Below are positions 15,771-52,861 of a DNA stretch of 64,000 nt, one piece after another; position 1 is the stretch's first letter, and each line of letters opens with the position of its first letter. The DNA lies in IMG/VR virus record IMGVR_UViG_3300042542_006078; one strand, written 5' to 3'. Made by a program: the position numbers and the translations under genes. This DNA comes from a virus (lineage: Duplodnaviria; Caudoviricetes). Below the pieces are notes generated by a model, which was not told where the DNA came from, made no database searches, and worked only from the letters and a program-made list of their open reading frames with translations.

Positions 15771-15983
15771 TCACTTTTTATTCTTACAATTACAACCCTT
15801 TTTCATTTTTTTCATTTTATCTAAAATAGTAGGAGGCTTCTCATCAGACATATATGTGTTCATTGCAGTTGTAGGAACAGAAGAGCCAAATCCATCAGGC
15901 CCCGGTGACGCAAAAGAAGGCGCACCAGTCATTCCTCCATAATTTTCTCTTTTTTGTAACCAATTGAAAAAAGATCGCTCCAT
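15771..15983 (-). CDS. Small protein with CTS-like N-terminus
   Basis: Begins MERSFFNWLQKRE; TATATA 6 nt before the ATG. Confidence 0.55.
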   Translation of the reverse strand: MERSFFNWLQKRENYGGMTGAPSFASPGPDGFGSSVPTTAMNTYMSDEKPPTILDKMKKMKKGCNCKNKK

Positions 15984-16027
15984 AATCGATATATAGTTTG
16001 TCGGATTCTTTTATAACAAGGAGTGTT

Positions 16028-17092
16028 ATGAAAAATAGTCTTATTAAGACAATTGTCGTCCTTCTGCTTTCGGCAGCTATTTTTGCCACTTACAATAAAA
16101 AGTCTTCTTCTAAAATAATCATAAATTCCTCTCCAAAAGAGACGGAAGTAATTGAAATTCAATCAAAAGAAACAGAAAAATTAAAAACTTTTAATATTTC
16201 AACAAAAATACCAGAGTTTTTAACCTATCCGCAAACAGTAGAACAAATCAAAAAATGGAAAGAAGAAGCAAGCGAAATAGTTCAAGTAGAAAAATATGGA
16301 AAAACAAAAAAAGGAACAGACCTTTATTACATTCGTGTCAATTCTGATGAAAAAAAAGTAAAACCAAAAGTTCTAATTACTGCCTGCATTCATGGTAATG
16401 AACCTCTTGCATCTGGAATAGTCATGGCCTATATTGGCAATTTATTGGAACAATACAATAAAAACAGAGAAATAACCGATCTTGTCAAAACTAGAGATTT
16501 ATATTTTGTTCCAGTAGTATCTCCAGACAGCTATCCAGACTCAAGAATGGTTGACGGAGTTGATCCAAACAGAGATTTTTCAAGCCCTAAATTTCCAAAT
16601 CATCAAAGCAGCCCAAGCGTTGCTGCACTAATCGATCTTTACTGGAAAGTAAGACCATCAGCAGTAATTTCTGGGCATACATTTGGCAGACTTATTCTTA
16701 CTCCATACGGAGACAGATATGACAAATCATTTCACGAAAAAGATTACACAAGAATTGTTGGAAAAATGTCAGAAATGACAGGATATAAGAGAATTCATGC
16801 GGCAGAACTTTACAGCAGACCAATACAAGGAACAGAAGTTGATTGGTTCTACAGAAATGGATCAATGGCTGTCGTGATTGAATTCGGCACACATCAACAC
16901 AAACCATCTTTTTCAGACATTCTCAACGAGTTCAATAAAACAAAGGGCGCAATCTCGCTTTTCATCAACGAAGCACCTATTGTCCCATTCACAGTGGCCG
17001 ACGAAGAGATTGATTTTTCAAAAAATACAGGTATCGCTCATACTTATCGCAAGCCTGCGAACGGAGAACTGACCCCAGCAAGTCATCACTAA
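16028..17092 (+). CDS. Exported M14 zinc carboxypeptidase
   Basis: HGNE, DPNRDF, GHTF, IEFG motifs; signal peptide; AGGAG RBS before the ATG at 16028. Confidence 0.85.
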   Translation: MKNSLIKTIVVLLLSAAIFATYNKKSSSKIIINSSPKETEVIEIQSKETEKLKTFNISTKIPEFLTYPQTVEQIKKWKEEASEIVQVEKYGKTKKGTDLYYIRVNSDEKKVKPKVLITACIHGNEPLASGIVMAYIGNLLEQYNKNREITDLVKTRDLYFVPVVSPDSYPDSRMVDGVDPNRDFSSPKFPNHQSSPSVAALIDLYWKVRPSAVISGHTFGRLILTPYGDRYDKSFHEKDYTRIVGKMSEMTGYKRIHAAELYSRPIQGTEVDWFYRNGSMAVVIEFGTHQHKPSFSDILNEFNKTKGAISLFINEAPIVPFTVADEEIDFSKNTGIAHTYRKPANGELTPASHH

Positions 17093-17600
17093 CAGTATTT
17101 TTATAGACAGCAAAATTATTGGGGTTGAAATCAATTGGCTTTACTAATTCTAAGTAATCATTGATCAAATCAGCCCCTCTATCATTCAACAAATCATCAA
17201 AAGTCAACAAAACAGCACCGGGAGTATTTCTTGCCATTTCACAAATTCTTCTCAACCTAAATGTGTAATACCTCACAGCATTCAAAGGCCTATAACCAAA
17301 ATTAGAAATTATTTGCGGAATACATTGTTCTGGACTTCTCAATACATAAATAAACTTGCATGAAGAATAAACATTCTTAGTTGAAATTTGATAATTAAAA
17401 TTAATTTCATCCATGAAAATAGCCGAATTATTATTGGCTTTGTGTCTGCACGACATCAAATTTATAATATTCATACTTGATTCATAGTTGTTCAAATTTT
17501 TACTCTTGTATCCCTGAATGCGGGGATTTTGTTGCATGGCGGCATATAATTGATTGGAACCAGAAAATAAATGGCTACATATGAAAATAACTTTTTTCAT
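16989..17600 (-). CDS. Degenerate sulfotransferase-like protein
   Basis: SHLFSGSN PSB-like loop, VLRSP, LLTFDDL. Confidence 0.55.
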   Translation of the reverse strand: MKKVIFICSHLFSGSNQLYAAMQQNPRIQGYKSKNLNNYESSMNIINLMSCRHKANNNSAIFMDEINFNYQISTKNVYSSCKFIYVLRSPEQCIPQIISNFGYRPLNAVRYYTFRLRRICEMARNTPGAVLLTFDDLLNDRGADLINDYLELVKPIDFNPNNFAVYKNTVSDDLLGSVLRSQACDKYERYLYFLKNQSLRRPL

Positions 17601-17666
17601 TGGTCATCCGAGAGAAATATTAGAAAGAAAACTAACTATCCATATTAAGAGTTAAAGGTACACAGT

Positions 17667-20174
17667 ATGCCAATTTGGTCAGACTTTTTCAAAATTTTTA
17701 ACTTTTCGGCAGAACCAGACCCTTTGTCTCGCCGCAAAGACCCTAGGCAATTCATCTCGGCAGGAATTAGCCAACCAGAAGCATTAGGCGCAGATATCAA
17801 CAATGGTCAAGTAAGCGGCGGTATGTCCAGCTACCGTCAGACCAACGACATGATTGACACCACCACACTGTCAAATCGTGCCATGCGCTACAAAGAGTAC
17901 GAAAGACTCAGAAATGTGCCAGAAATTGAAATGTCAATGACAGTATATTCAGACGAAGCATGTATATCTGGAGATACTAAGATATCCACACCTTTTGGTT
18001 TCACAACTATTAAACATCTTGCTGAAACCAAAAAAGATGAGCGTTTTCTTGTCTATTGCTACGACTTTGAAAAGAAAGACTATACCCTAGGTTGGGCATA
18101 CGACCCAAGAATTGTTAAAACGGCACCAACTATAAAAATAACACTAGACAACGGATCAACCTATACCGCAACAGAAGATCATCGTGTCCTTCTCAAAAAT
18201 GGCGAATGGACAGAAACAGGAAAACTAAAGTTTGGCGACGAACTCATGCCATTCTACCGTGTTCCAGCACAAACACATATCACTAAAATAAAACATTCCC
18301 AATACCCAAGATTGTTTTCATTTGCCAAAGGATGGATTCACGAAAGACAATTTATTGATGATTGGAAAACTGGAAAAACAACCCGTGACTACCAAATTGT
18401 TAATCGTGCATGCCGCATGATAGCCGGTGGACTGACAACCAGACAAATATCACAACAAATAGAAATGGATTGGCACACAATAGAAGACAGAATGCACAAA
18501 GAAGGATTTTCTTACAAAGAAGTCAAAAGATTGCACGGACTTGGAGAATCAAGAAGAGTAGTTGGAGTATCACCCGGACCAGAACAAGAAGTATACGACC
18601 TTTCAGTAGAAAAACACAAGTGCTTCGCCACAGATTCAGTCATTCTTCATAACTGCCAAAGAGATGAAAGCGGCAATATCCTCAAAGTGACATCTGAAAA
18701 CATGGATGTCAAAGAAGAAATTGAATTCCTTTTCCTCAACAGAAGGATGCTAAATCTAAATCGTCATGGCTGGACTTGGTTCAAAAACCTTTGCATATTT
18801 GGTGACTTCTTCGTTGAAATTATAATAAATCCCGACAATCCAAAAGAAGGCATCTACAGATGTCTACCATTACCTGTCGAAACAATGTATCGAATCGAAA
18901 CAGTAAAAGGAAGAGTAATCGAATACCAACAATCAAAAGAAGGACCAGATTATCAAGCAATAGTTAGAGGATCACCAGTAGAACTCACCGATACCGAACT
19001 AAACCAAACGACAGCAATCAGATTCGCTCCAAGCCAAGTTGTTCATTTCCGAATTGGAGATGATAGAAAAACTTTTTATCCATACGGCCAAAGCCTTATA
19101 GAACCAGCAAGAGCCCCAGCACATAGCCTCAGATTACTAGAAGATGCTATGGTCGTTTACAGATTGACTCGAGCGCCGGAAAGGCGTGTTTTCTACATAG
19201 ATGTAGGTCAATTACCTCCATTCAAAGCCGAAGCATTTATGGATCGCATGAAGGATCAATTCCGCAAAAGAAAGGTCGCTAATAGTAGTGGTGGTGTTGG
19301 CGCAAATGCCGTCGATGAAAGATGGATGCCACCAGCGCAAGATGAAGATTATTGGTTGCCTGTCAGGCCAAATAGTGGAACAAGAATCGATACTCTTCCC
19401 GGTGCTGAGAATCTTGGTGAAATTGATGATGCTGTATATTTCCGAAACAAACTTCTGACAGCACTTAATTTTCCAAAGAATTATTTTAACAATGAAGACC
19501 CCGGTGCAACTAGGATTACACTTTCATCGCAAGATGTCAAATTTGCAAGAATGATTGAAAGACTACAAAGTCACTTTGAAGACGGACTTCTTGAATTGGC
19601 AGAAAGGCATCTTGCTTTAAGAGGTTTCCCACAAGAAAACTATCGTGACCTTCGTGTCAAAATGACTCCTCCAAGCGATTGGAGAGAACTTTCTCGTGCC
19701 GAAGTTGTTAATGCCCGTTATGGAAATGCTGGTACTCTCAAAAGTAGTCAGCTTATGTCAGACTATGACATCATGACTAAGATACTCAAGTATCACAATG
19801 ATGAAGCAGATGAAATGCTCGCAAGACTCAAGATTCAAAAGCTTGAAGATCTCAAGCTTCAAGTATTGGCCCAAAACCCACAACTTTTGGGTGTCGGTAT
19901 TCCCGGTCAAGAAGAAGGCCAAGATCAGCCAGAATTGGGATCTACACCGGGAGGCCCATCACCGATGCCCGGTCCAGAAGGAGAACAGCCTCCTATGCCT
20001 CCAGAAGGATTGCCATCACCTCCAGAAGGCGGAGAATCCCCTAAACAAGCTGGATCTGAACCAACGATCTTGCCTGAACCAAGCAGCGATGATGTCAAAA
20101 AATTTGATCTTGAACTACAAGATTATGAATCAGAGTCCGATATAGAAGACATCGATTATAGCGTAGGTGAATAA
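17667..20174 (+). CDS. gp20: Portal protein (T4 gp20-like) containing an intein
   Basis: LEDAMVVYRLTRAPERRVFYIDVG, EDYWLP, TRIDTLPG, KFARMIERLQ are gp20 signatures. Confidence 0.95.
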   Translation: MPIWSDFFKIFNFSAEPDPLSRRKDPRQFISAGISQPEALGADINNGQVSGGMSSYRQTNDMIDTTTLSNRAMRYKEYERLRNVPEIEMSMTVYSDEACISGDTKISTPFGFTTIKHLAETKKDERFLVYCYDFEKKDYTLGWAYDPRIVKTAPTIKITLDNGSTYTATEDHRVLLKNGEWTETGKLKFGDELMPFYRVPAQTHITKIKHSQYPRLFSFAKGWIHERQFIDDWKTGKTTRDYQIVNRACRMIAGGLTTRQISQQIEMDWHTIEDRMHKEGFSYKEVKRLHGLGESRRVVGVSPGPEQEVYDLSVEKHKCFATDSVILHNCQRDESGNILKVTSENMDVKEEIEFLFLNRRMLNLNRHGWTWFKNLCIFGDFFVEIIINPDNPKEGIYRCLPLPVETMYRIETVKGRVIEYQQSKEGPDYQAIVRGSPVELTDTELNQTTAIRFAPSQVVHFRIGDDRKTFYPYGQSLIEPARAPAHSLRLLEDAMVVYRLTRAPERRVFYIDVGQLPPFKAEAFMDRMKDQFRKRKVANSSGGVGANAVDERWMPPAQDEDYWLPVRPNSGTRIDTLPGAENLGEIDDAVYFRNKLLTALNFPKNYFNNEDPGATRITLSSQDVKFARMIERLQSHFEDGLLELAERHLALRGFPQENYRDLRVKMTPPSDWRELSRAEVVNARYGNAGTLKSSQLMSDYDIMTKILKYHNDEADEMLARLKIQKLEDLKLQVLAQNPQLLGVGIPGQEEGQDQPELGSTPGGPSPMPGPEGEQPPMPPEGLPSPPEGGESPKQAGSEPTILPEPSSDDVKKFDLELQDYESESDIEDIDYSVGE
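17961..18653 (+). mobile_element. Intein (231 aa) without a LAGLIDADG endonuclease
   Basis: Block A CISGDTKI, block B TATEDHRVL, block F VYDLSV, block G ILHN followed by Cys+1. Confidence 0.92.
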
Positions 20175-21495: not shown

Positions 21496-21858
21496 TCAGT
21501 GAGCCGTATAGCCATCTGCTGCGTTTGGATATAACTCATCATCATTCGGCTTTATACCGTCAAAATTGCCCAAACCTTTATCATCATTCATACCACCATG
21601 ATGTTTTCTACCTATATTTTGAAAAGAATCCAGCTTGTAATCATTCAAAATTTCTTTTATTTCAGGATCATTCCTATGCTGATTCAAAAAAGCGACCAAT
21701 TCTTGAGGTTTGATTTCCATGATCTTCTTAATAGCCCTTTTGACAACCTCTAAAGAAGCCAATGAATTTTGATCCATGTCATTTTTCTTGTTGTGAATTG
21801 GTTCGTGATCGTAGGAGGCAATCTCCTTTATATTCAAATATTGCTGAAATGTTTTCAT
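21496..21858 (-). CDS. Small protein with CTS-like N-terminus
   Basis: Begins MKTFQQYLNIKE. Confidence 0.65.
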   Translation of the reverse strand: MKTFQQYLNIKEIASYDHEPIHNKKNDMDQNSLASLEVVKRAIKKIMEIKPQELVAFLNQHRNDPEIKEILNDYKLDSFQNIGRKHHGGMNDDKGLGNFDGIKPNDDELYPNAADGYTAH

Positions 21859-22089: not shown

Positions 22090-24114
22090 ATGAAGAGAAA
22101 ACTTATTTCTTACGATGTCTTCAAGAATCTTGAAGAAAGCTCATTGACACATGTGGAAAAGGAACTCATTGAAGCTGAAGAATTACTTGCGGCAAGCCTC
22201 GGACTTGACGAAGTACAACTTCACGCATTTGGTGAATCTGATGTTACTTATAAGACATCAGACGACAATTTTATTCATGCCACCTATACTGTCTCCGACA
22301 ATCAGGTGATTCTTGAAAACATTGAACTCCTTGTTGTTGAAGAAGAAAGCGCAAAGTCAGCAGCCCGCCAAACAATCAGCGTTATGATCGACAAGCTTCT
22401 TGAGAACGACAACAACGCAGCAAGTGAACTTTTCGAGTCTTACATGTCAATGCCTTCAGTTAAGAGGGAAATGTCTGTAAACGAAGCAGTTAAGATCGGA
22501 AAGAAGAAATCACCTCTCGCAGGCAAGAAGCAAAGCCCTGCAACAATTCTTAAGAGAAAGCTTGCTCGCAACGCAAAAATTTCCAGAATGTCGCCAGCAG
22601 AAAGAGCAGCAAAGCTAGGTCGCCCCAAGGGCAAAAAAAGCGGCAAGGCAAAGTTCTATGCATCAAAGCTCAAGCCTAAAACCATGAAGGAATGGGCAAG
22701 AATGTGCGAGAATGTTCTTGGATACATCAATTTTGTTGAAAATGGATCAGTACTCAGCGAAACAGCAGTCAAGTCTGATGATAATGGCAATGTAAGCGCA
22801 GTGGCCATGCCTTCAAGCAAAAACCGTAAAGAAGGAAAAGTTCTAAGCATGGGATTCAAGACCATGGACACAGAACTAAAAGTTCTCCGTGGAAACATGA
22901 AGAATATCAGTGAAGATCAAACTTTCGTCAAGGCCATGTCTGATCTGAAGCGTTACAACAATATCAGCGATAACAGGGCTCTTGAAGAAACCCTTGAGGC
23001 AATAGTTTCCAGATGGCCAGACATTCTTTACATCAGCGAAACAGAACTTGCACAGCAGATTGACTCAGCTTTGTCTTCAGCAAGCGTCAGCAATTACGAT
23101 GACGATACTTGCTCATTCATGGCAGAAGCAATTCTTCGCACAGCACACAATGTGTTCACCGATAGAGTTCGCAAGATTGCACACCTCGCTGGATACGGCA
23201 AGGATGTAAGCAGCGACTGCAATGACTGCGAAGACGCTTATCGTGAATTTTCAAGCGTTTCACAGAATTTGTTCAACCAGCTTGATGAAAACCACAACAA
23301 CGAAGTTCGCATCTTTGGCGACCTTTACAGCGCACTCAACGACATCTACCGCATCGCAAACGAAAGCGGAGATGAAGCAACAAGAGTCGAAGTTGCCGAT
23401 ATGATGCGTGAATGTTATGCAATTATGAACTCAACCAGACTTCCAGACATGGAACTCGCTGAATCAATCGCTGACTTCCTCGCAGAACTCATCGAGAGCG
23501 AAGGTGGAGATCATTCACAAAAAGGATGGGATCAAGGTGTCGAAATTGACGCTCTTGGCGACAACTCAATGACCAAGTGGAACGCAAAGCAGTATGCTGT
23601 TCCTTCTAACAATAGCGGCGACTGGAGAGATGCCGCTCCTGTTAGCGATGGCAAGTCTTATCACGGCAACTCAAATGAAATGGGACACAACGCCCTTGCA
23701 AACTATGGCAAAGACACTTGGCCAAATGTTCAAAATCCATTCACGCCAAAATCATTATTCGCAAAAATGAAAGAAAAAAGTGTAATCGATGATGAAGGTC
23801 TTGGAAGTTTCCAGAAGGATACTTGGCCAAACCTCCACAACCCAATGGCTCCAAAGCCAGTTATGCCAAAAATGGTTGAAGGATACGGACAATCATTCGA
23901 TGGAACAAAATACGGAAAAGTAGATAATTCTAGTCAGATCGCCATTCCAAGACAAATGATCAATGATGCTGAAATACAAATTAACTCAGCACGAAGAAAA
24001 GGCGATAAAGAGTTAGCCTTTAGACTTGCAAGAAAACTCAAGGATGATCTAACACAGTTTGGCTACGCTTGGCAAAGAGATCCTCACGCAACTGATTTAA
24101 TTCAACAAAAATAA
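22090..24114 (+). CDS. Large prohead-core-like protein (gp67/gp68 position)
   Basis: First gene of the head operon; acidic, with a basic RMSPAERAAK segment reminiscent of gp68; the call rests partly on position. Confidence 0.55.
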   Translation: MKRKLISYDVFKNLEESSLTHVEKELIEAEELLAASLGLDEVQLHAFGESDVTYKTSDDNFIHATYTVSDNQVILENIELLVVEEESAKSAARQTISVMIDKLLENDNNAASELFESYMSMPSVKREMSVNEAVKIGKKKSPLAGKKQSPATILKRKLARNAKISRMSPAERAAKLGRPKGKKSGKAKFYASKLKPKTMKEWARMCENVLGYINFVENGSVLSETAVKSDDNGNVSAVAMPSSKNRKEGKVLSMGFKTMDTELKVLRGNMKNISEDQTFVKAMSDLKRYNNISDNRALEETLEAIVSRWPDILYISETELAQQIDSALSSASVSNYDDDTCSFMAEAILRTAHNVFTDRVRKIAHLAGYGKDVSSDCNDCEDAYREFSSVSQNLFNQLDENHNNEVRIFGDLYSALNDIYRIANESGDEATRVEVADMMRECYAIMNSTRLPDMELAESIADFLAELIESEGGDHSQKGWDQGVEIDALGDNSMTKWNAKQYAVPSNNSGDWRDAAPVSDGKSYHGNSNEMGHNALANYGKDTWPNVQNPFTPKSLFAKMKEKSVIDDEGLGSFQKDTWPNLHNPMAPKPVMPKMVEGYGQSFDGTKYGKVDNSSQIAIPRQMINDAEIQINSARRKGDKELAFRLARKLKDDLTQFGYAWQRDPHATDLIQQK

Positions 24115-24124
24115 AGGAGTATAA

Positions 24125-24811
24125 ATGGAAAATCAATTCCTTCTAGTTGATTGCTGCAACAACGGAGGATTTACCATGAGTCTTAACGAGTCAGTCTCCG
24201 ATAGGGGACTGACTAAGTTCAAAGGTAAATTCCAAGAAGCAGAAGCAATCAATAAAAATAAAAGAATCTATCCATACGGAGTTCTTGACGAAAATGTTAA
24301 GAAACTTCTGCCGATTATCCAAAACCGTGGCCTGATCGGAGAACTCGATCACCCAACCGATTCTATAATCCACTTTGAAAAATGCTCTCACATTGTTACT
24401 AAACTATGGTGGGAAGGCAACAACCTAATGGGAGAGGGAGAAATCCTCAATACACCACATGGGAAAATTCTAAAGGCCCTACTGAACGATGGAGTTCGTG
24501 TGGGGATATCAAGCCGTGGAGTAGGAAACGGAAGAAGCGACGAGAATGGAATCCTTGTGATTGGTGAAAGCTACAAACTCATTACCTTCGATGCTGTAGC
24601 AGATCCAAGCACACACTCAGCATTTCAGGAGAAAGTGTCGAGTGGTAAGAAAGAAAGTTATGCCCCAACTGCAAATAATGCAGAAATTTCTAAAAATGCG
24701 GTTAAAAACGAAAGTAGCCGCATACATAATGTCAGAAAAGATGCATTGTTGGCTTGTTTGGGCGGAATAATCGAACAACAAACACGAAACATTACAGCGA
24801 GGTTAGGCTAA
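24125..24811 (+). CDS. gp21: Prohead core protease, T4 gp21-like
   Basis: NKNKRIYP, GELDHP, GISSRGVG, FDAVADPS. Confidence 0.95.
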   Translation: MENQFLLVDCCNNGGFTMSLNESVSDRGLTKFKGKFQEAEAINKNKRIYPYGVLDENVKKLLPIIQNRGLIGELDHPTDSIIHFEKCSHIVTKLWWEGNNLMGEGEILNTPHGKILKALLNDGVRVGISSRGVGNGRSDENGILVIGESYKLITFDAVADPSTHSAFQEKVSSGKKESYAPTANNAEISKNAVKNESSRIHNVRKDALLACLGGIIEQQTRNITARLG

Positions 24812-25741: not shown

Positions 25742-27178
25742 ATGAACGCTAATTCTAGATTTTTGAACGAGGCTAGGGAGCTAGAAACTCGTTGGAAGCA
25801 GACCGGACTCCTTGAAGGCATTCAAGATCGTTATGTCCGCTCCGCTACCGCAGTTCTGCTCGAAAACCAGAGACTCATGAACGAAGTCTCAACCGATACT
25901 GGAGATGTCGCACAGTTCAAGAGGATTTCAATTCCACTTGTTCGTCGTATCTACCCACAGCTTATCGCAAATAAGATCGTTTCCGTACAGCCTCTCCTTG
26001 GCCCAACCGGCTTGGTCTACTATCTCCGCTTCCGTTATTCAAGCAACAAGGGCGCTACCCGTGGTGCTGACAATAACGGCGGATTCCCCGGCGACGATGC
26101 CAACTCACTCATGCAGAGAGCCGATGGTACTGCCAATCTCGACATCTTCTATTCCAGCCAGTTCATCCAGAATGAAACAACCAGCACTGATGCTGGCGCT
26201 GGTGTTGTAAGCGTGTTCGCTCCTCTTGAACACACGCCAATCCTTGCCGGAACAATAACAGGCACTATCTATGATGGCGCTACTGCTATTCAAACATTCA
26301 CCGTGTCTGCTAGCGGAACTTTCACCTTCTCAGATATCGGCTCTCCTTCACCAAAGGTTACATCTGGTACTCTTCAGACAACCACAGGCGAACTCACCCT
26401 TACTTGGAACGGCGCTCCCGGCTCAAACAACGCAGTTTTGAGCTACGAATACAACATGGAGTGCAACCAAGATCTTCCTGAAATCAATCTCGTAATTGAA
26501 TCAGAAGAAATCGCTGCTAAGACCCGTAAGCTCAAGGCTGTATGGTCTTATGAAGCACAGCAGGATCTTCGCTCACAGCACAATCTTGACGCTGAAGCTG
26601 AACTCACCGCTGTTCTCGCTCAGGAAATCAACCTCGAAATCGACCGTGAAGTTCTCACCGATCTTCGCAACAACGCAGGTACTGTCTCAGCTTGGGACTT
26701 CAACACTGCACTCGGCGAAACGATCAAGGAAAAGTACGAAAGCCTTTATGTTAAGGTTGTCGAAATTTCCAATGTCATCCACAGAAAGACCCTTCGTGGT
26801 GGCGCAAACTTCATCGTGACCTCACCTGAAGTTGCTTCAATCTTTGAAACAGCAACAGCCGGTTTCGCTCCTGCACCTTCTGAAACCTTCACAAGCTCAC
26901 TCGGCATCCAGTATGTCGGCACCGTGAACAATCGCTGGAGACTCTACAAAGATCCTCTCTTCCCAAGCAATCAGTTGTTGATGGGTTACAAGGGCGACTC
27001 TTACATGGACAGCGGATACTTCTACTGCCCATATGTTCCATTGACCCAGACACCAGTTGTTCTCGATCCAGAGAGCTTCTGCCCACGCAAGGGAATTCTC
27101 ACTCGCTATGGAAAAAAGCTGCTTCGTGAGGGGGCAAAATTTTACGCACGCCTCAGTATTGCTAATTTCGTCATCTGA
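25742..27178 (+). CDS. gp23: Major capsid protein, T4 gp23-like
   Basis: IPLVRRIYP, VQPLLGPTG, KTRKLKAVWS.EAQQDL, EINLEIDRE, FYCPYVPL, TRYG. Confidence 0.97.
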   Translation: MNANSRFLNEARELETRWKQTGLLEGIQDRYVRSATAVLLENQRLMNEVSTDTGDVAQFKRISIPLVRRIYPQLIANKIVSVQPLLGPTGLVYYLRFRYSSNKGATRGADNNGGFPGDDANSLMQRADGTANLDIFYSSQFIQNETTSTDAGAGVVSVFAPLEHTPILAGTITGTIYDGATAIQTFTVSASGTFTFSDIGSPSPKVTSGTLQTTTGELTLTWNGAPGSNNAVLSYEYNMECNQDLPEINLVIESEEIAAKTRKLKAVWSYEAQQDLRSQHNLDAEAELTAVLAQEINLEIDREVLTDLRNNAGTVSAWDFNTALGETIKEKYESLYVKVVEISNVIHRKTLRGGANFIVTSPEVASIFETATAGFAPAPSETFTSSLGIQYVGTVNNRWRLYKDPLFPSNQLLMGYKGDSYMDSGYFYCPYVPLTQTPVVLDPESFCPRKGILTRYGKKLLREGAKFYARLSIANFVI

Positions 27179-40964: not shown

Positions 40965-41831
40965 TTACTTTTTTCTTTTTTTAATTTCAAGAATCAGATT
41001 CTGCATTAGTTTTGTTGCTTTGTCGATTAGATTGCTTTTCTTGACATCGATATTATTTTGGCTGTATTTTTCCTTGTATCCAAAAACAGTGCCTTCAATG
41101 CAGTTTTCTGGCACAAAGATACCTGAATAACGACATTGATTTACAATTGGCATGATTGCTTCTTTGGGGTTAATATAACTATTTTGCTTGCAGTCAACCA
41201 TGGATAGTGGTATTTTCCTGTTCACATAATCATCTGCTCCATCATCTCCGTGAATGAAAAATGCAGCGACTTTTCCTTCGTAATGGTTTTTCAGTAGGTC
41301 ACGATATTTTCCGCTTTGTTCTGCTGCTATGGTCAGCTTTGGGTTTTTTATGTCTTTTCCATAGATTTCTTTTGCTTGTTCTTGAGTAAGAGTGAGGTTG
41401 ACGCAGACAAGTCTGTCAAATAAGGCTTTGACTTGACTACTTGGTCCAGACCAATGAACAGGAGTGAAGACTACAAATCCATCGGCTTTTTTTAATTTTT
41501 TATAAACATCTTTTTCGTGCATAAGATCATTTGTTCCATCACCTTTATCATAACAATCACAAGGATAATGGCAATGAAAACCATTGCTTGTTCCGATGCA
41601 ACCTTTACATGGTCTAATTTGAGGATCAGTATCCATGACCTTTAGATCGATAAGAGTGATCTTCACTTCTTTGGTGATTTTTTGAATGGCTTCATTTAGA
41701 AGAAAACTTGTCTTGCTATTTCCTCCAGAACACGAGTCTTTTGTTCTGGGGCTACCCTGAAATGCAACAATATTGATTTTGTCGTTATTATTGCCTGTTG
41801 CTTCTGCTAAATACTCAATAAAGCTAATCAT
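40965..41831 (-). CDS. Multimeric flavodoxin / iron-sulfur flavoprotein with CTS-like N-terminus
   Basis: GSPR...NS, PCKGC...CHYPCDC, ADG.V..TPVHW...S..KA.FDR; begins MISFIEYLAE. Confidence 0.8.
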   Translation of the reverse strand: MISFIEYLAEATGNNNDKINIVAFQGSPRTKDSCSGGNSKTSFLLNEAIQKITKEVKITLIDLKVMDTDPQIRPCKGCIGTSNGFHCHYPCDCYDKGDGTNDLMHEKDVYKKLKKADGFVVFTPVHWSGPSSQVKALFDRLVCVNLTLTQEQAKEIYGKDIKNPKLTIAAEQSGKYRDLLKNHYEGKVAAFFIHGDDGADDYVNRKIPLSMVDCKQNSYINPKEAIMPIVNQCRYSGIFVPENCIEGTVFGYKEKYSQNNIDVKKSNLIDKATKLMQNLILEIKKRKK

Positions 41832-41885: not shown

Positions 41886-42215
41886 ATGAGAAGTTACAAA
41901 GAGTTTCTTGCAGAAAAATATACAATTCGAGATTCTGGCGAGATTAATGAAGCAGTTGCCAAGAAAAAGGAAACTTCCAAGAAGAAGGAATCTGCCAAGA
42001 AAGACAAAAGCACAGACAAGATTAATTGCATGCAGGAAATTGTAGCTGAGTTGAAAAATACATTTAAGCATTACAGTCTTACGACAAGAAAATATGTGTG
42101 GGAAAAATTAATTTCTACGAAAGGTAAAGAGCTTGTTGGCAAGTTGGTTCATGATCCAATGATCTATCGTACAACCAGTCCATTTACTCAATTGGTTACT
42201 GACACCAAAAAATAA
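41886..42215 (+). CDS. Small basic protein with CTS-like N-terminus
   Basis: Begins MRSYKEFLAE; GAGGAG RBS. Confidence 0.7.
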   Translation: MRSYKEFLAEKYTIRDSGEINEAVAKKKETSKKKESAKKDKSTDKINCMQEIVAELKNTFKHYSLTTRKYVWEKLISTKGKELVGKLVHDPMIYRTTSPFTQLVTDTKK

Positions 42216-42580: not shown

Positions 42581-42847
42581 TTAAGGTTTAGCTTGTGGTG
42601 CAGCAGGCGCAGGCCCGGCAGCGGGTGCTGCGCCTCCACCACCTCCCCCTCCGCCATCGCATGGTCCCGCTCCTCCTCCTTGACCACAAATGCGAATTTC
42701 CCCTGCCAAAGACCTAGGGGTTGGGTCTTTTGGGCTTGGTTTTGGTTTTTGGGGTGGATTGTCTCTTGGACCCGGTTTGAATGGATGACCTTTTCCTTTG
42801 CTGGAATACATTTCTTCTATTTGATTTAGCCAGTTCTTGAAATTCAT
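42581..42847 (-). CDS. Small Gly/Pro-rich protein with CTS-like N-terminus
   Basis: Begins MNFKNWLNQIEE; TAAATA 4 nt before the ATG. Confidence 0.6.
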   Translation of the reverse strand: MNFKNWLNQIEEMYSSKGKGHPFKPGPRDNPPQKPKPSPKDPTPRSLAGEIRICGQGGGAGPCDGGGGGGGGAAPAAGPAPAAPQAKP

Positions 42848-42903: not shown

Positions 42904-43479
42904 ATGAGCGAATCATTTCATGAATATGTTAACAACAGAGAAGATCGTCATTTGTTTGAACAAACTGACATTCCTATGAAGTTGATTACAGAAGCGATTG
43001 TGAGCGAAGGATTAAAGTATCACTTGGAAAATAATTTATCCCTTTCCAACACCGTGTTCCGATATGGAAGCGAAGCGTATTATACTTTGGTCAACGAAGT
43101 TCGTGATCTTTATCGCAATAGACTTATAGAAATCAATGCTCATGATAAGTTTTTCATAGATACGGATTTGGGATGTGAAGCTGTTTATCATGGTCAGAGT
43201 GTAAAGCTTGATAGTCCTATGCGTTCATCTGGTCCTAAAAAGTATCAGGTTTTTGTGAACTCTGGCAGGAAAAATGCTCAAGGTGAAACGATTGCCAAAA
43301 AGGTTACATTTGGATACAGAGGTCTTAGTGTAAAAAATTACTCCGATGCAAGAAGAAAATCATTTCTTGCAAGACATAAATGCAATGAAAAGAAAGATAG
43401 GACAACTCCCGGTTATTGGGCTTGCAATGTAGGCAGATATGCTAAGAAATTAGGTTTGAGTTCATCAAAGAGATGGTAG
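42904..43479 (+). CDS. Conserved phage protein (SFLARHKC...YWAC type) with CTS-like N-terminus
   Basis: KKVTFG, RKSFLARHKC, TPGYWAC. Confidence 0.7.
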   Translation: MSESFHEYVNNREDRHLFEQTDIPMKLITEAIVSEGLKYHLENNLSLSNTVFRYGSEAYYTLVNEVRDLYRNRLIEINAHDKFFIDTDLGCEAVYHGQSVKLDSPMRSSGPKKYQVFVNSGRKNAQGETIAKKVTFGYRGLSVKNYSDARRKSFLARHKCNEKKDRTTPGYWACNVGRYAKKLGLSSSKRW

Positions 43480-45745: not shown

Positions 45746-46117
45746 ATGCAACAAAAAAAATGTAAAAAATGCAAATTTGATAAGCCTATAGAATCATTTA
45801 GAATTTGCCGTTTGTATAAAGGAATGGAGCAAGGCAGTTATAGGCGATCTGAATGTATTGACTGTGAGAAAAAAAGTTCTGATCAATTGAGAAAAATAAA
45901 ACATACTGTTCCAGAAAAGCCTAAAAAGTGTGATTGTTGTCAAGAAATTACTGAAAATTTTGTTCCAGATCACAATCATGAAACTGGTAATTTTCGTGGT
46001 TGGTTATGCAGGAATTGTAATCAGGGAATTGGTAAATTAGGTGATAACTTAGAAGGATTGTTGAGGGCTGTGAGTTACATTATGAAAAACGATTTTACTC
46101 ATCGTCCTTTGGTTTGA
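45746..46117 (+). CDS. Endonuclease VII-like (His-Me finger) putative homing endonuclease
   Basis: CKKC...C..C, CDCC...VPDHNHETG.FRGWLCRNCNQGIG. Confidence 0.85.
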   Translation: MQQKKCKKCKFDKPIESFRICRLYKGMEQGSYRRSECIDCEKKSSDQLRKIKHTVPEKPKKCDCCQEITENFVPDHNHETGNFRGWLCRNCNQGIGKLGDNLEGLLRAVSYIMKNDFTHRPLV

Positions 46118-46658
46118 AGAATTTAATGTTTTTATCGGCCCATTCTATTGCCATGTGGGCTCCTCTGTTGAGAAGTCCTACAAGTTGAGTTGGGTTTCCG
46201 CTTCCTTCAATTGCGATGTTATCTCTTTCTGCGTTTTCGATCCAAACAAGTGCAAAAACAAGGCCATTTCTTTGTTTAAGTTCTGATGCCATTTGTCTTA
46301 TTGTAAGAAGTGACATGTCTGGAAGTCCTAATTCCTTTTGTTTGGCTTTTTTTAGGTCTCCATTTGATTCAAGAACATTAGCCAGTTTCTTTTGAAGCAT
46401 TTTGATTGTTTCAAATTTTTTTGTTTGTTCTATAACAATTTGATATGAAAAATCTTTTGGGTCACTTTGATTTGCAAGAACGAGCAAATTACAAGGGTAG
46501 TTTTCTTTTATTTCCGTTATTTGTACAGATAGTGCTGTAAGGGTTGCTTCTTTATTAATTTTGAAGTGAATCCAAGAATATTCCGTACTAGTGTCGATTA
46601 TTGATATTCCCTCATATTTATTGAGAGTCTTTACAAGAGACTCGAATTCCTTTTCCAT
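46095..46658 (-). CDS. Hypothetical protein
   Basis: 187-aa ORF. Confidence 0.65.
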   Translation of the reverse strand: MEKEFESLVKTLNKYEGISIIDTSTEYSWIHFKINKEATLTALSVQITEIKENYPCNLLVLANQSDPKDFSYQIVIEQTKKFETIKMLQKKLANVLESNGDLKKAKQKELGLPDMSLLTIRQMASELKQRNGLVFALVWIENAERDNIAIEGSGNPTQLVGLLNRGAHMAIEWADKNIKFFKPKDDE

Positions 46659-47191
46659 TAATCCTCCAAAATTCCATTATTGTCTAGAGAACGCACAAGT
46701 TGCATAAGATGTTTGCACATTCCCGGTAATTTACGAGGATTCGCAGAACCGGGATTTATTTTCGCTTCGTACTTTCTTTTCTTTCTGCCATACAAAGATC
46801 GGTCGATATGATCTTCGTAGTTGAAGCGCCAATAAAAATCTTGACACCCGCAACGAAGAACAACATCCTGATTTGTATTCAGTCTTTCAAAAAAATACTT
46901 GCTTCCATTACTTGTGGATAACTCGGCCAAATGTGGATTTTTAGAATCGTAATACCTCACATTCTTGAAAAGAATCATAGGGTTATATTCTGTACCTTTT
47001 AGCTCATTCCTTGCCAAGCCTTTCACAAATAAAGTTCTAACACCTAGGAATGGAACGAATGATAAATTTGTAATACTTATTTCGTTAACCGAATTTTGCC
47101 TTTTCCTTGTGTTTGGAAAGGCATTTACGGCACTCGTATACAATCCTTGTAGGCTTGATTCATTGAGTTCGAGCCAATTGTGGAACTTCAT
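46658..47191 (-). CDS. SWIM-type Zn-finger protein with CTS-like N-terminus
   Basis: CGCQDF ... GMCKHL; ATG at 47191 (MKFHNWLELNE) with TAAATA 5 nt upstream. Confidence 0.65.
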   Translation of the reverse strand: MKFHNWLELNESSLQGLYTSAVNAFPNTRKRQNSVNEISITNLSFVPFLGVRTLFVKGLARNELKGTEYNPMILFKNVRYYDSKNPHLAELSTSNGSKYFFERLNTNQDVVLRCGCQDFYWRFNYEDHIDRSLYGRKKRKYEAKINPGSANPRKLPGMCKHLMQLVRSLDNNGILED

Positions 47192-47284
47192 ACATATATT
47201 TATCGGATATTCAAATTTTTCATTCAAAGTAAACTAATATATCCATAGATTTTCGGCAATCTGTAAAAAATGACGAAGTGATTT

Positions 47285-49198: not shown

Positions 49199-49987
49199 TC
49201 ATTCAGGTAGCTTATATTTATATTTTTGCAAGTCCATTTTAACAAATGGTAACTTTGGCAATTCTCTCTTTTCTGTATATATTGGCTCCAAACCATTATC
49301 TAGTTCTTCGTTCCAATTTTTGAGCATTTTTATGTCGGTGAAATAAGATTGATGGTTCATCAGTTGTTCTTTGTGCTTTCTAATAGCCCTACACACTCCG
49401 ATTACCTTGAGATCATCATTTTGAAACAAAGGTCCACCACTGTCTCCAACCATACAATATGCATTTGTTCTAATAAGACCTTTGAATATATTTGGGTTGT
49501 ATGTCTTGGTTTGTGTGATTTGGCCATAATCAATTCTTGCATCATCCATCATCCCAAATCCTATGTGGAATATATTTGAACCCATGAATATTTTATGGTC
49601 GAAATTAATTTGCACTGTCGGCAATTTCTCATCTGACTCAAAAACACCTATTGCCAAATCTTCTTTTGGTTCCAAGGCATAAATGAACATAGGATAAGTT
49701 TTTTCTGATTCGATTTCTGCGTGTTTTTTGTATTTGAATATTTTTACAAAGAATGGACCGTTACTTTCCGCTATGTGTTCTGCTGTAATAATAGCGTTGC
49801 GATACTTGTTGCCGTTTTTGGTTGATCTGACTATGAAGCCGCTTCCTCCAGTTTCATTTTTTGTATCAGTTATGCATACAGTTGGATAAAGACAAGATGA
49901 ATAAATATTATCTGGAACTTTTTGTGCAAATCCAGTTGTAATACTAATCATTAAAATAAAAAAAGACGATAATATGAATTTTTTCAT
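49199..49987 (-). CDS. Exported trypsin-like serine protease
   Basis: GGSGF, TAEHI, EDLAI, GDSGGPLF; signal peptide MKKFILSSFFILMISITTGFA. Confidence 0.88.
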   Translation of the reverse strand: MKKFILSSFFILMISITTGFAQKVPDNIYSSCLYPTVCITDTKNETGGSGFIVRSTKNGNKYRNAIITAEHIAESNGPFFVKIFKYKKHAEIESEKTYPMFIYALEPKEDLAIGVFESDEKLPTVQINFDHKIFMGSNIFHIGFGMMDDARIDYGQITQTKTYNPNIFKGLIRTNAYCMVGDSGGPLFQNDDLKVIGVCRAIRKHKEQLMNHQSYFTDIKMLKNWNEELDNGLEPIYTEKRELPKLPFVKMDLQKYKYKLPE

Positions 49988-50726: not shown

Positions 50727-50972
50727 TTGATATTTATGGAAAACACTCAGCAAAAAGAAAACTGTTATTTTTATACTGACTGTTCATTGCCTGTGAGTGA
50801 GCAGATTATTCAGGTCATGTGCATGAATTGTCATGAAAAAAACCCAGAAATGGGCTGGTTTTGGGAAGGCTCAAGGCTCGGTTACGGTCCATTTGATTTT
50901 ATTTGCAATTTGTGTGGTCATGCTGTTCATGAAAAGAGGAGTAATGATGAAAGTCAGTCGTCCAGCAATTAA
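50727..50972 (+). CDS. Small Cys-rich hypothetical protein
   Basis: CMNC ... CNLCGH Zn-ribbon pattern; alternative start at 50736. Confidence 0.55.
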   Translation: MIFMENTQQKENCYFYTDCSLPVSEQIIQVMCMNCHEKNPEMGWFWEGSRLGYGPFDFICNLCGHAVHEKRSNDESQSSSN

Positions 50973-51702
50973 ATTAATGAATGATAAATGGTCGGTTAAA
51001 GATTGGATACTCTCAAATTTCCCAGAAGATTATGAGAACATGACTTATGTTGAGCCATATGGAGGTGGAGCAAATCTGCTTTTTTGCAAAAATAAGTCAA
51101 AGTTTGAAGTCATCAATGATATAAATTTTGATTTAATTGACATTTTCAGAGCAATGAGAGATGATCCTAGCGAACTTGTAAAAAGACTGACTGGTCAAAA
51201 ATGCACTCAGGAAAACTTTGATAAAGCATCAATCAGAAAAGACTTTGATGATTACATGGATCACGCCGTTAATGATCTTTTTCTTCGGAAGACAAGTGCG
51301 AATGGATTAAAAGATAAATTCAGCAAGCCTTCTAGCCTTGAAACATGGAAGAAGAGTGTCAAGGAAATTTTTGAATATGCGAATAGAATCAAAGATGTAT
51401 ATATCTTGAATAAGCAGGCCTTAGATATTATTGAAAAGTTCAATATAGAAGATTCTTTTATTTATTGCGATCCTCCCTACCTTCATGAAAACAAGGTTTC
51501 CAAGGTTGTTTACAGTAGTGAAATGACACCAGAATGTCACATGAAGCTCTACCAAATTCTCGATAAATTTAAGGGCAAGGCAATAATAAGTGGATATATG
51601 TCGCCATTATATAAAAGAATATACAAAAATTGGAATATTGAAAAAAACACAATAAATAAAGGCAATTCCCGTGAAGTGGAAATTATATGGAAAAATTTTT
51701 AG
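50947..51702 (+). CDS. dam: DNA adenine methyltransferase (Dam/D12 class)
   Basis: YVEPYGGG, EVINDIN, IYCDPPY, ISGY; GAGGAG RBS. Confidence 0.85.
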   Translation: MKVSRPAIKLMNDKWSVKDWILSNFPEDYENMTYVEPYGGGANLLFCKNKSKFEVINDINFDLIDIFRAMRDDPSELVKRLTGQKCTQENFDKASIRKDFDDYMDHAVNDLFLRKTSANGLKDKFSKPSSLETWKKSVKEIFEYANRIKDVYILNKQALDIIEKFNIEDSFIYCDPPYLHENKVSKVVYSSEMTPECHMKLYQILDKFKGKAIISGYMSPLYKRIYKNWNIEKNTINKGNSREVEIIWKNF

Positions 51703-51711: not shown

Positions 51712-51948
51712 ATGAAATGTGAAATGCCAAATTGCGACAATGAAAGTACAAAAAAAATAAAAAACAGCGGTGTTTTTTATGGCATTTATGTAGAAGATGC
51801 CGAGATTGATGTTTGTGATCAACATCCAATTGCCGATATACAAAATATAATAAATGAAGTCTCTGTTGATAGCTGCATGGATTCACAATTGTGCAATCCA
51901 TTTGATGACATGGAAATGCTTAGAAAACAGAAAATTATGTCTAAATAA
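51712..51948 (+). CDS. Small hypothetical protein
   Basis: CEMPNC...C..H; AGGTGG RBS. Confidence 0.55.
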   Translation: MKCEMPNCDNESTKKIKNSGVFYGIYVEDAEIDVCDQHPIADIQNIINEVSVDSCMDSQLCNPFDDMEMLRKQKIMSK

Positions 51949-51951
51949 TGC

Positions 51952-52146
51952 ATGGTACTTAATTTCAAAGAATTCATGTCTTTGTCGAAAGATTCTCCAC
52001 AAGGGACATCCGACCTAAAATCAGATGGTTTGACTGTTACTTTTTCAGGGGAAAGCTCGAAAAATAAAACGCCAAAACCTAAAAAATTGTCAGGTTTAGA
52101 TCCAGAAAAAATGTATGGAAAGATAAAAAAAAATGAACTTCCGTAA
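51952..52146 (+). CDS. Small protein with CTS-like N-terminus
   Basis: Begins MVLNFKEFMSLS. Confidence 0.55.
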   Translation: MVLNFKEFMSLSKDSPQGTSDLKSDGLTVTFSGESSKNKTPKPKKLSGLDPEKMYGKIKKNELP

Positions 52147-52474
52147 ATTATGGGAAAACATGAAATACGCCAAAGATCAAGGTTCGGAATCTCCCGAAAT
52201 TGATCCTATGGCAGTTACAGCTATAAGAACAGGATTAGGAATTGGCGAATCATTTTGGGATGATTTTATTCAAATTCTCAACAATTCCGAAGGACTCTCT
52301 GCTTTGTTGGATATTTCAGTCGATGAAATTTCAACATGGAGGAAGAAGATAGAGGATGCCTTGTCGCAAGTTGGTGAGGAAGATGGTGATTTGGATGTTG
52401 GAAAAAACAAGAAACTAGTCAAAACTGGACAACCGGAAGAACCAGAAGATGATGAAGATTTCTCAGGAGCATAA
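52133..52474 (+). CDS. Acidic small protein with CTS-like N-terminus
   Basis: Begins MNFRKLWEN. Confidence 0.6.
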   Translation: MNFRKLWENMKYAKDQGSESPEIDPMAVTAIRTGLGIGESFWDDFIQILNNSEGLSALLDISVDEISTWRKKIEDALSQVGEEDGDLDVGKNKKLVKTGQPEEPEDDEDFSGA

Positions 52475-52477
52475 TAA

Positions 52478-52861
52478 ATGAAGACTTTTCTGCAATATAT
52501 CAAAGAACAAGGTGACGGCGAAGAAATGCAAACAGTTGCTCCTCCCGGCGACATGCCATTGGATAAAGAGTCTGGTGACGGTGACAAACCAATCGTCCCC
52601 GGAGATGGCCATTCTGAAAGACACAAGGAAAAGTTGAAGAATGCATTTAACAGATTCCTTAATGAAAAAATGCTTGTAGCGGTCAAACATGGAAAAATAT
52701 CTAAAGAAGACGCTCTAATGTTGTTGAAAACTGAAATATCGGCTTTCTCCAATATGATTGGCGCTGATGCAAATAGCGCAGGCACAGAAGGGAAGAATGC
52801 CATGGCAACCAATTCCGAACCTAGGTCGCCAATTCCAAATCAACCAACAGCGAGTGGCTAA
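52478..52861 (+). CDS. Small protein with CTS-like N-terminus
   Basis: Begins MKTFLQYIKE. Confidence 0.65.
   Translation: MKTFLQYIKEQGDGEEMQTVAPPGDMPLDKESGDGDKPIVPGDGHSERHKEKLKNAFNRFLNEKMLVAVKHGKISKEDALMLLKTEISAFSNMIGADANSAGTEGKNAMATNSEPRSPIPNQPTASG

Follow-up and report, generated by a model that had tools for sequence, protein, structure and literature searches.

Capsid-targeting-like leaders on unrelated proteins of a huge lake phage suggest that co-packed proteins may be readable from sequence

Which of the many proteins encoded by a huge phage are packed together with its DNA? Phage proteins injected with the DNA act ahead of phage gene expression and are a main route of counter-defence, as when IPI* of T4 counters GmrSD, and for uncultured huge phages we know of no present way to tell which of the hundreds of genes encode injected proteins. 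The question was raised by a 64,000-nt stretch of DNA (the window, meaning here the whole stretch that was analyzed) from an uncultured phage of a lake, whose genome spans at least 434 kb, in which an initial annotation had singled out 12 dispersed genes as a putative set of packaged and injected cargo. A 434,573-bp contig carries a flavoprotein identical to that encoded at 40965..41831 of the window. LR756511, from a related 595-kb phage and the nearest complete genome, served as the main comparison. The analysis suggests, from sequence comparison, that proteins co-packed with phage DNA may be recognizable from their genes.

All 12 N-termini lie where they had been annotated and read as quoted. 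Nine of them fit the pattern M-x(1-3)-[FYW]-x-x-[FYW]-[LIV]-x(0-5)-E, and the remaining three (51952+, 52133+, and 31558+) are marginal. The nine tagged genes, named below by start coordinate and strand, are as follows.

28971..29843, plus strand: candidate cargo 1, Ntn hydrolase precursor, 290 aa; leader MEFRNFIENASLNE (nt 28971-29012)
40965..41831, minus strand (start 41831-): candidate cargo 2, FMN-reductase-like flavoprotein with a Cys cluster, 288 aa; leader MISFIEYLAE (nt 41802-41831)
41886..42215, plus strand: candidate cargo 3, small basic protein, 109 aa, mature pI 9.7; leader MRSYKEFLAE
21496..21858, minus strand (start 21858-): candidate cargo 4, 120 aa, no Pfam or PHROG match; leader MKTFQQYLNIKE, matrix score 9.7
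42581..42847, minus strand (start 42847-): candidate cargo 5, 88 aa, basic, Pro/Gly-rich; leader MNFKNWLNQIEE, matrix score 10.3
42904..43479, plus strand: candidate cargo 6, 191 aa, viral family phrog_7595; leader MSESFHEYVNNRE, matrix score 10.4
46658..47191, minus strand (start 47191-): candidate cargo 7, 177 aa, viral family; leader MKFHNWLELNE
52478..52861, plus strand: candidate cargo 8, 127 aa, acidic; leader MKTFLQYIKE
15771..15983, minus strand (start 15983-): candidate cargo 9, 70 aa; leader MERSFFNWLQKRE, matrix score 4.8

The tag is enriched well beyond chance: when residues 2-16 were shuffled 1000 times, 0.54 matches arose on average and never more than three, against the nine observed, and a loose regular expression matched 9-10 of the 88 crude gene calls in the window but none of 350 internal Met positions. 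A position matrix trained solely on LR756511 tags selected the same window proteins as the motif, with eight N-termini scoring at least 7.2; among 18,126 internal positions, only 4 did so. With a score of only 4.8, 15983- has the weakest tag of the set, and 52478+, next to the plus-strand gene 52133+, had been missed by the crude gene caller because of a spurious minus-strand ORF. Beyond residue 15, no pair of tagged proteins showed a BLASTP E < 0.25, in agreement with their description as mutually unrelated. Tags run to 10-14 residues, since the aromatic pair and the Glu lie a varying number of residues apart, and seven of the nine end in [LIVMF]-x-E, compared with 13 of the 81 other window N-termini; in 15983- and 42904+, P3 is not [LIV]. 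Most mature forms are basic, as the T4 internal proteins are (pI of at least 8.9 in 7/9, against 27% of window proteins), and several are of low complexity and Lys- or Pro-rich. With a strict regular expression, match rates were 21/999 in LR756511, 3/245 in T4 (IPII and IPIII among the three), and 2/559 in XacN1, where two to three tags were counted overall.

PHROGs and Pfam returned no function for six of the nine proteins, and LR756511 orthologues were found for only 2 of 14 tagged-protein queries. The LR756511 orthologue of the 47191- protein (53% identity) retains both the tag and a TAAATA sequence, and among eight relatives of the 41886+ protein L8, A9, and E10 are invariant, the Lys-rich linker is variable, and the C-terminal domain is conserved. 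The enzymes proposed as cargo fared unequally. The Ntn hydrolase fold and the FMN-reductase-like flavoprotein with its Cys cluster stood, but no GNAT-like protein was found among those tagged, and the GNAT/Mom-like gene at 27348-28877 has no tag. A SWIM finger, also proposed, is based only on 12-16% of the members of the Atlas clusters related to the 47191- protein, which are 94-100% viral. Two of the marginal genes are the following.

51952-52146, plus strand: MVLNFKEFMS, two aromatics with no Glu after them; TAAATA at 51942-51947
52133-52474, plus strand: MNFRKLWE, variant aromatic spacing i/i+4

The i/i+4 spacing of 52133+ is kept in its LR756511 orthologue, and 31558+ is a weak tag candidate. 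Two other matches to the regular expression were rejected, 63979- because a Prim-Pol domain begins at residue 7, and 49296- because its start is probably 49188, behind TATAAATA and a Shine-Dalgarno site.

The likeness of these tags to the T4 capsid-targeting sequence (CTS), MKTYQEFIAE (bioRxiv 10.1101/2021.01.19.427310), was borne out by MRSYKEFLAE, MKTFLQYIKE, and MKTFQQYLNIKE, among others, the first of which (41886+) is the closest in the window. This sequence occurs exactly in T4 IPII and IPIII, both recovered by the tag regular expression. The known T4 system comprises these two proteins together with IPI and Alt, and the CTS is removed by gp21 (PMC9026906, PMC9958956, and PMC3012670, which review the original work of Mullaney and Black 1996), cleavage occurring after L/I-x-E (PMC9026906). 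The initial annotation's account of T4 cargo as a few small proteins omits the packaged enzyme Alt as well as enzymes loaded through fusion to a CTS (PMC9026906). Of the T4 core proteins, only IPII and IPIII conserve the CTS (PMC9958956); packaging in another phage therefore does not require the motif, nor is the motif proven to suffice for it.

In the flavoprotein (41831-), the Pfam FMN_red match (E 7e-14) starts at residue 20. All homologues down to ~50% identity carry the tag and none at 49% or below does, so the leader is a module joined to enzyme cores, as had been surmised. Across 34 non-redundant homologues, the low-entropy positions were F4, Y7, L8, and E10 within the tag and 11 and 12 after it, with positions 2, 3, 5, 6, and 9 varying freely. 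In T4 IPIII, targeting depends on residues 4 and 7 and processing on residues 8 and 10 (PMC9026906); the conserved flavoprotein tag positions 4, 7, 8, and 10 are those found critical by experiment in IPIII, a coincidence that speaks to conservation and not to function.

The 28971+ product is predicted to be a Cys-Ntn hydrolase of the AAT/choloylglycine hydrolase fold, with C15 opening the first strand. Its catalytic Cys15 directly follows the leader, E14 and C15 are invariant in the alignment, and the AF2 model (pLDDT 83.8) shows a disordered leader, with strand one running from residue 16. The best Foldseek matches of this model in the PDB were isopenicillin N acyltransferase 2x1c (E 2e-9), bile salt hydrolases, and penicillin V acylases, with a probability of 1.00 to 2x1c, 3gvz, 3hbc, and others; the Pfam AAT match fell below the cut-off (18.4 vs. 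23.2 bits). Close relatives invariably have Glu at P1 (118/118) and I/L/V/M/F at P3 (118/118), with the catalytic Cys next, and their leaders split into several unrelated classes. Distant representatives have a junction of [LIVMF]-x-E followed by C (43 proteins), of [K/R]-x-A followed by C (45 proteins, many within proteins of 500-2800 aa), or of M followed by C with no leader (18 proteins). The junction code is thus swapped as a block between lineages, which points to lineage-specific maturation proteases and not to self-processing. Strong comparative evidence therefore indicates that at least the Ntn hydrolase leader is probably cut after Glu by a phage maturation protease. On a freshwater contig (L053), the Ntn hydrolase has no leader, though neighboring genes carry another tag, so packaging is not obligatory for this enzyme; on a 277-kb contig (L051) with a [K/R]-x-A-class homologue, no common tag was found within 20 kb.

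A protease of the gp21 kind, together with other head genes, is encoded in the window itself.

17667..20174, plus strand: portal protein, gp20 type, with intein; Portal_T4 E 5e-75, residues 353-717
24125..24811, plus strand: prohead protease, gp21 homologue, 228 aa; Pfam PF03420, T4 gp21 tblastn 30.5% identity
24811..25710, plus strand: putative scaffold in the gp22 position, 299 aa, 21% Asp+Glu, between the protease and capsid genes
25742..27178, plus strand: major capsid protein, gp23 type, 478 aa; Pfam Gp23 E 4.4e-87, match from residue 56

The gp21 homologue annotated at 24125 was confirmed by Pfam Peptidase_S77 (E 4.7e-25; 88.7 bits against a curated cut-off of 27; profile positions 46-188 of 198) and by tblastn with T4 gp21 (E 1e-19), and the T4-type head machinery of the window also includes the gp23-type capsid protein, recognized both by Pfam and by tblastn with T4 proteins, and the gp20-type portal protein, the latter with an intein at residues 114-329 (Intein_splicing, E 2e-10). 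A cut is predicted in the capsid protein after M-N-E at residue 48, giving a propeptide encoded by nt 25742-25885; in the alignment, LMNE followed by V shares a column with FLTE followed by A of T4 gp23, which ends at residue 65. The gene at 24811-25710, whose start overlaps the protease stop by 1 nt, matched nothing in Pfam or PHROGs. It is taken as a putative scaffold from its synteny with T4 genes 21-22-23 and from its [LIVM]-x-E sites, which are denser than in any other window protein (67 per 1000 aa vs. a mean of 19). The LR756511-trained tag matrix found no high-scoring segment in it, and a complex prediction of the scaffold with residues 1-40 of the 41886+ protein scored 0.00, which gives no verdict either way. 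Its segment YEEYDHKLAE resembles the tag with a three-residue insertion and was not counted. Against positions 24001-44000, the RNA-library contigs X18, X19, and X20 matched perfectly only on the protease, scaffold, and capsid genes, X20 matching at only 90-95%, and these sequences may be DNA carry-over; over the same interval, they gave no usable cover of tagged genes and no readable transcript ends.

We give a probability of about 0.7 to the reading that these N-termini are T4-type capsid-targeting propeptides, removed in the prohead. Tagged genes would be expressed late, often from a TAAATA box abutting the start codon. Residues 1 to 10-14 would form a short amphipathic segment, whose aromatics at ~4 and 7 may dock the protein on the scaffolding core during prohead assembly. 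The S77 protease (24125-24811), activated in the finished prohead, would then cut after the Glu of [L/I/V/M]-x-E at the end of the tag, and the mature protein would remain in the head with the DNA, ejection into the next host being probable. For the Ntn hydrolase, the same cut would expose the required N-terminal Cys, so that the enzyme would gain activity only within the head. Late timing, core docking, presence in the virion, and ejection are steps that we infer.

The same tag could load the proteins and be cut from them, the proteins then being internal head components that act in DNA condensation, in assembly, or as enzymes in or on the capsid and not an injected toolkit. Mature forms that are mostly basic, several of them Lys- or Pro-rich, are as expected of DNA-associated internal proteins, and the 21858- gene adjoins the head operon, from which it is transcribed away. 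We nevertheless consider this unlikely, as T4 proteins loaded by a CTS, even foreign fusions, reach the host (PMC9026906), and the Ntn amidohydrolase and the flavoprotein have no obvious role in a DNA-filled head. Ejection itself would require a 30-kDa flavoprotein and its cofactors to pass a narrow portal and tail channel, the T4 portal channel being ~30 Å (PMC9026906), which speaks against the capsid-targeting reading.

The sequence context upstream of the tagged genes bears on their timing and on a further alternative. TAAATA is found 4-6 nt before the ATG of five window genes, three to four of them tagged.

28961..28966, plus strand: TAAATA box, 4 nt before the Ntn hydrolase ATG, a T4-late-promoter-like core
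42852-42857: TAAATA box, 4 nt before the ATG of 42847-
47197-47202: TAAATA box, 5 nt before the ATG of 47191-

T4 late promoters (TATAAATA) are recognized by gp55 acting together with gp33 and the sliding clamp, and by analogy the tagged genes would be expressed late. Two observations weigh against late timing: a tblastn search with T4 ORFs at E 1e-5, a weak search, found no gp55 homologue in the window or LR756511, and one of the genes preceded by TAAATA in this way encodes a DnaB helicase. In LR756511, the spacing from TAAATA to ATG peaks sharply at 4-5 nt (28 genes), and tag and box are associated (odds ratio 18, p 6e-11). With the box adjoining the ATG and no Shine-Dalgarno site between them, the sequences imply mRNAs that would be leaderless or nearly so. 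The shared N-terminus might have another purpose, such as helping to translate leaderless late mRNAs, protecting the protein end or setting its turnover, or sending the protein elsewhere than to the capsid, its likeness to the T4 CTS being convergent; the box placed 4-5 nt before the ATG in many tagged genes and the structureless Ntn leader in the AF2 model would fit. We regard this as improbable. Tag and box are separable, with 26 of 40 tagged LR756511 genes lacking the box and 28 boxed genes lacking the tag, including structural genes (baseplate wedge, tail lysin-like protein, sheath stabilizer, and head-tail adaptor among the untagged). What is conserved is the residue class (F/Y/W, L/I/V, E) and not the codon, at the four positions critical in T4 (PMC9026906), and the Glu-Cys junction of the Ntn family demands that the cut fall precisely where the leader stops.

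Self-processing is known for isopenicillin N acyltransferase and other Ntn hydrolases of this fold, and both precursor and mature forms are among the PDB matches, yet it is very unlikely that the Ntn leader is the enzyme's own self-cleaved propeptide and the other N-termini alike by chance or descent, given a P1 Glu and P3 I/L/V fixed throughout the 118 relatives and swapped en bloc for [K/R]-x-A elsewhere, the exclusion of chance by the shuffles and the independent matrix, and the exclusion of descent by the unrelated mature parts.

Returning to the capsid-targeting reading, use of the CTS by T4-like phages to load varied proteins has already been published (PMC9026906), and our literature search found no paper on CTS expansion in huge phages. 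A broader proposal, to which we assign somewhat less than even odds, is that the packaged proteome of huge T4-related phages is readable from sequence, about one gene in 10-20 having a portable cassette of ATG-abutting late promoter and CTS tag that makes acquired proteins cargo; some cargo, such as the Ntn hydrolase, would be zymogens armed by the prohead protease in the head and delivered ready, and lineages would differ in the tag and cut codes placed on the same cores. Should the label do in this phage what it does in T4, the cargo could be listed from sequence alone, also for many tagged relatives, and the Ntn hydrolase family offers a clean biochemical case, with one defined bond and one defined protease.

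Comparison with XacN1 gave a single, loose case, in that mass spectrometry detected its chitinase ORF272 in virions (PMC5852040), and the reading frame of this ORF can be extended upstream by MKNNPFIKWFE, preceded by TAAATA-N5; the two clear XacN1 tags, on ORF314 and ORF352, go unmentioned in the main text on that virion proteome. Like the Cys-Ntn hydrolases 2x1c, 3hbc, and 2iwm, the window enzyme has a four-layer fold in the model, a Cys that starts the first strand, and an N-R-D motif that follows. Identity is only 10-17%, however, and the window propeptide ends in a phage-protease motif, unlike the typical self-processing junctions of those enzymes. As with T4 late promoters, a TAAATA core lies upstream of tagged, tail, and connector genes, but the box is here only 4-6 nt from the ATG without an intervening Shine-Dalgarno site, and the spacing of 4-5 nt is not seen in T4.

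In phiKZ, 201phi2-1, and SPN3US, head and ejection proteins are cut at S/A-x-E by gp21-related proteases (PMC5694885, PMC9026906). The phiKZ-like phages process many head-internal proteins after Glu, among them enzymes such as the virion RNA polymerase, and a role in targeting has been proposed for the propeptides. Most of these exceed 100 residues, they have no common short tag, and cleavage is at S/A-x-E, in contrast to the L/I-x-E, T4-type capsid, and short tag found here. The resemblance to T4 extends to a leader of 10-14 residues that has aromatics at ~4 and 7 with an aliphatic residue following at 8 and that closes with the Glu of L/I-x-E, to its placement on otherwise unrelated, mostly basic proteins, and to the gp21-type protease, gp23-type capsid, and gp20-type portal in the same genome. 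Unlike T4, where 2-3 of 245 genes are tagged, ~9 of ~90 genes carry the tag here, the distance from aromatics to Glu is variable, and the predicted cargo includes enzyme cores with tagless homologues.

Nine proteins of the window share a short N-terminal leader that resembles the T4 capsid-targeting sequence (CTS). The initial annotation had listed twelve such N-termini, all of which are present as quoted. Nine fit one motif, M-x(1-3)-aromatic-x-x-aromatic-[L/I/V] followed by Glu within five residues (genes starting at 15983-, 21858-, 28971+, 41831-, 41886+, 42847-, 42904+, 47191- and 52478+), while those at 51952+, 52133+ and 31558+ are marginal. Against these nine, 1000 shuffles of residues 2-16 gave a mean of 0.54 and a maximum of 3, and none of 350 internal Met positions carried the motif. 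With a position matrix trained only on tags of the related phage LR756511, eight window N-termini scored at least 7.2, a value reached by 4 of 18,126 internal positions. A chance origin of the motif is ruled out. The same regular expression recovers T4 IPII and IPIII, in agreement with the proposed CTS resemblance, and after residue 15 the tagged proteins are without mutual relatedness. Under the strict expression, rates were 3/245 ORFs in T4, 2/559 in the cultured jumbo phage XacN1 and 21/999 in LR756511, the loose expression giving 40/999 in the last. Two looser matches in the window were discarded: at 63979- a Prim-Pol domain begins at residue 7, and at 49296- the true start is probably 108 nt inward, after TATAAATA and a ribosome-binding site.

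Homologs of the flavoprotein at 41831- bear on whether the leader is a separate module, as had been suggested. About 100 homologs carry the tag down to approximately 50% identity, whereas those at 49% identity or less lack it and open straight into strand one of the flavodoxin-like fold; the tag is thus an added module. Across 34 nonredundant tagged flavoproteins, entropy was low at F4, Y7, L8, E10, A11, and T12, and high in the linker and at positions 2, 3, 5, 6, and 9. For T4 IPIII, amber-suppressor experiments assigned residues 4 and 7 to targeting and residues 8 and 10 to processing (PMC9026906). Judged from the entropy profile, these four critical positions are those under selection in the flavoprotein tag. 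In the family of the small basic protein at 41886+, L-A-E is invariant and the C-terminal domain conserved, with a variable Lys-rich linker between them.

The window belongs to a huge uncultured phage whose head genes are of the T4 type; in the window these are as follows.

4878-6740 (-), large terminase
17667-20174 (+), gp20-type portal protein with an intein (Intein_splicing at residues 114-329, then the Portal_T4 domain at residues 353-717; Pfam)
24125-24811 (+), Peptidase_S77 protease (Pfam; T4 gp21 tblastn), confirming the gp21 homolog previously placed here
25742-27178 (+), gp23-type capsid protein (Pfam; T4 tblastn)

The closest record, LR756511.1, is a 595-kb "uncultured phage" entry without annotation, and its capsid protein shares 81% identity with that of the window; a 434,573-bp contig encodes a protein identical to one of the window's, and many lake-water metagenomes contain DNA near-identical to the window. 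Between the protease and capsid genes, overlapping the protease stop by 1 base, lies a gene whose product has an acidic fraction of 21%, the highest [LIVM]-x-E density in the window (67 per 1000 residues; mean 19) and no profile match in Pfam or PHROG. It fits a putative scaffold degraded like T4 gp22. The T4 gp23 propeptide comprises 65 residues (PMC9958956), and the cut after L-T-E (residue 65) aligns with M-N-E|V in the window capsid protein (residue 48), with F-N-E|I occupying the same column in LR756511. Two freshwater metatranscriptome libraries (X18 and X19) contain contigs that agree with the protease, scaffold, and capsid genes (24225-26420) apart from 0 to 2 differences, consistent with expression in nature, DNA carry-over being another possible source. 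Directly 3' of the capsid gene, 27348-28877 (+) encodes a 509-aa protein in which a Mom/GNAT-like domain is joined to a TnsA-like endonuclease N-terminal domain and to a Cys-rich C terminus resembling endonuclease VII; PHROGs groups the first part with homing and HNH endonucleases. This gene looks like a homing-endonuclease fusion and is possibly a mobile element within the head operon.

At 28971+ the tag precedes a Cys-Ntn hydrolase, and structure comparison of its AF2 model (pLDDT 83.8) revealed resemblance to isopenicillin N acyltransferase, bile salt hydrolases, and penicillin V acylases. In the model, the first strand starts directly after Cys15, behind a leader that is disordered. Enzymes of the Cys-Ntn fold require Cys as residue 1 of the mature chain. 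In all 118 close relatives, many from contigs of 100 to 326 kb, Glu immediately precedes this Cys and I/L/V/M/F lies two residues before the Glu, matching the L/I-x-E cleavage motif of T4 gp21 (PMC9026906). Ahead of this junction stand leaders of several unrelated classes (MEFKEF-like, MKNLIRxIL-like, MNLQESI-like, and MxKSIIITESQL-like), the mature domains staying at approximately 50% identity. Among cluster representatives, the junction read [LIVMF]-x-E|C in 43, [K/R]-x-A|C in 45, many of these inside proteins of 500 to 2800 residues, and leaderless M|C in 18. Such replacement of the whole junction code between lineages is expected from lineage-specific maturation proteases and not from self-processing. 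On the freshwater metagenome contig L053, the Ntn hydrolase has no leader and neighboring genes bear another tag; four adjacent genes there (14280-16127) start MITLKSII, MIKLKDIL, VIKLKDLL, and MIKLTKIV, a shared tag class that is also found ahead of Glu-Cys in some relatives of the enzyme.

Five window genes, three or four of them tagged, have TAAATA 4 to 6 nt upstream of ATG and no ribosome-binding site. In LR756511 the spacing peaks sharply at 4 to 5 nt (28 genes), and the arrangement was found in 14/40 tagged versus 28/959 untagged genes (odds ratio 18, p 6e-11); near-miss tags were present on several of the boxed "untagged" genes. Among the untagged genes with the box are those for a baseplate wedge, a sheath stabilizer, a head-tail adaptor, and a tail lysin-like protein, as well as one for a DnaB helicase. 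By analogy, the box may be a T4-late-type promoter giving leaderless mRNAs, common to virion and tagged genes. No T4 gene has TAAATA at this spacing, and tblastn with T4 ORFs (E 1e-5) found no gp55 homolog in the window or LR756511. Because tag and box can occur apart, leaderless translation does not account for the tag.

As putative cargo, the nine comprise the Ntn hydrolase, an FMN-reductase-like flavoprotein with a Cys cluster, three small proteins that are basic or Pro/Gly-rich, two members of virus-only families with no assigned function, and two small proteins for which no relatives were found. Predicted mature pI was at least 8.9 in seven of the nine compared with 27% of window proteins. 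The GNAT-like cargo that had been anticipated was not borne out, as no tagged protein is GNAT-like and the Mom/GNAT-like gene at 27348-28877 lacks the tag. In XacN1, the chitinase ORF272 was detected in virions by mass spectrometry (PMC5852040). Its gene (AP018399.1 162627-163334, -) has an unannotated in-frame ATG extension, MKNNPFIKWFE, with TAAATA-N5 upstream, and from this sequence context the true start probably lies 72 nt upstream of the annotated one. ORF272 thereby offers a loose link, the sole experimental one, between a tag-like leader and virion presence.

A second shared N terminus (MGASSVTG(T/V)G.GA, MAATTTQGTGPG, MGATTTEGTGPG) occurs in four genes with no match in Pfam or PHROG, most of them downstream of a TAAATA box, with or without a ribosome-binding site. 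These four, and other genes interspersed with the tagged ones, are listed here.

30315-30941 (+), second shared N terminus
31207-31554 (+), second shared N terminus
44822-45385 (+), second shared N terminus
45398-45724 (+), second shared N terminus
44128-44700 (-), LAGLIDADG homing endonuclease
45746-46117 (+), endonuclease VII
49199-49987 (-), trypsin-like peptidase with a signal peptide-like N terminus
50833-51702 (+), Dam-type methyltransferase

The region 32415-41000, of lower GC (0.30-0.33), carries sugar-modification-type genes, encoding two Sulfotransfer_2 proteins, a xylose isomerase-like TIM barrel, a short DegT-type aminotransferase (195 aa), WbqC, and a leucine-rich-repeat protein. 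At 31928-32386 (+), a 152-aa acidic repeat-rich protein weakly matches a PARP-like repeat. The RNA-contig depth, very high at 32005-32671, was rejected as phage signal, its source being short low-complexity matches and not this phage.

In the literature searched, we found no description of CTS expansion in huge phages, of a leaderless promoter arrangement with TAAATA abutting ATG, or of the activation of an Ntn hydrolase by a prohead protease. The T4 CTS, and the view that T4-like phages can use it to load varied proteins, are established (PMC9026906); new here are the analysis of the Ntn junction and the match of tag conservation to the T4 mutational map.
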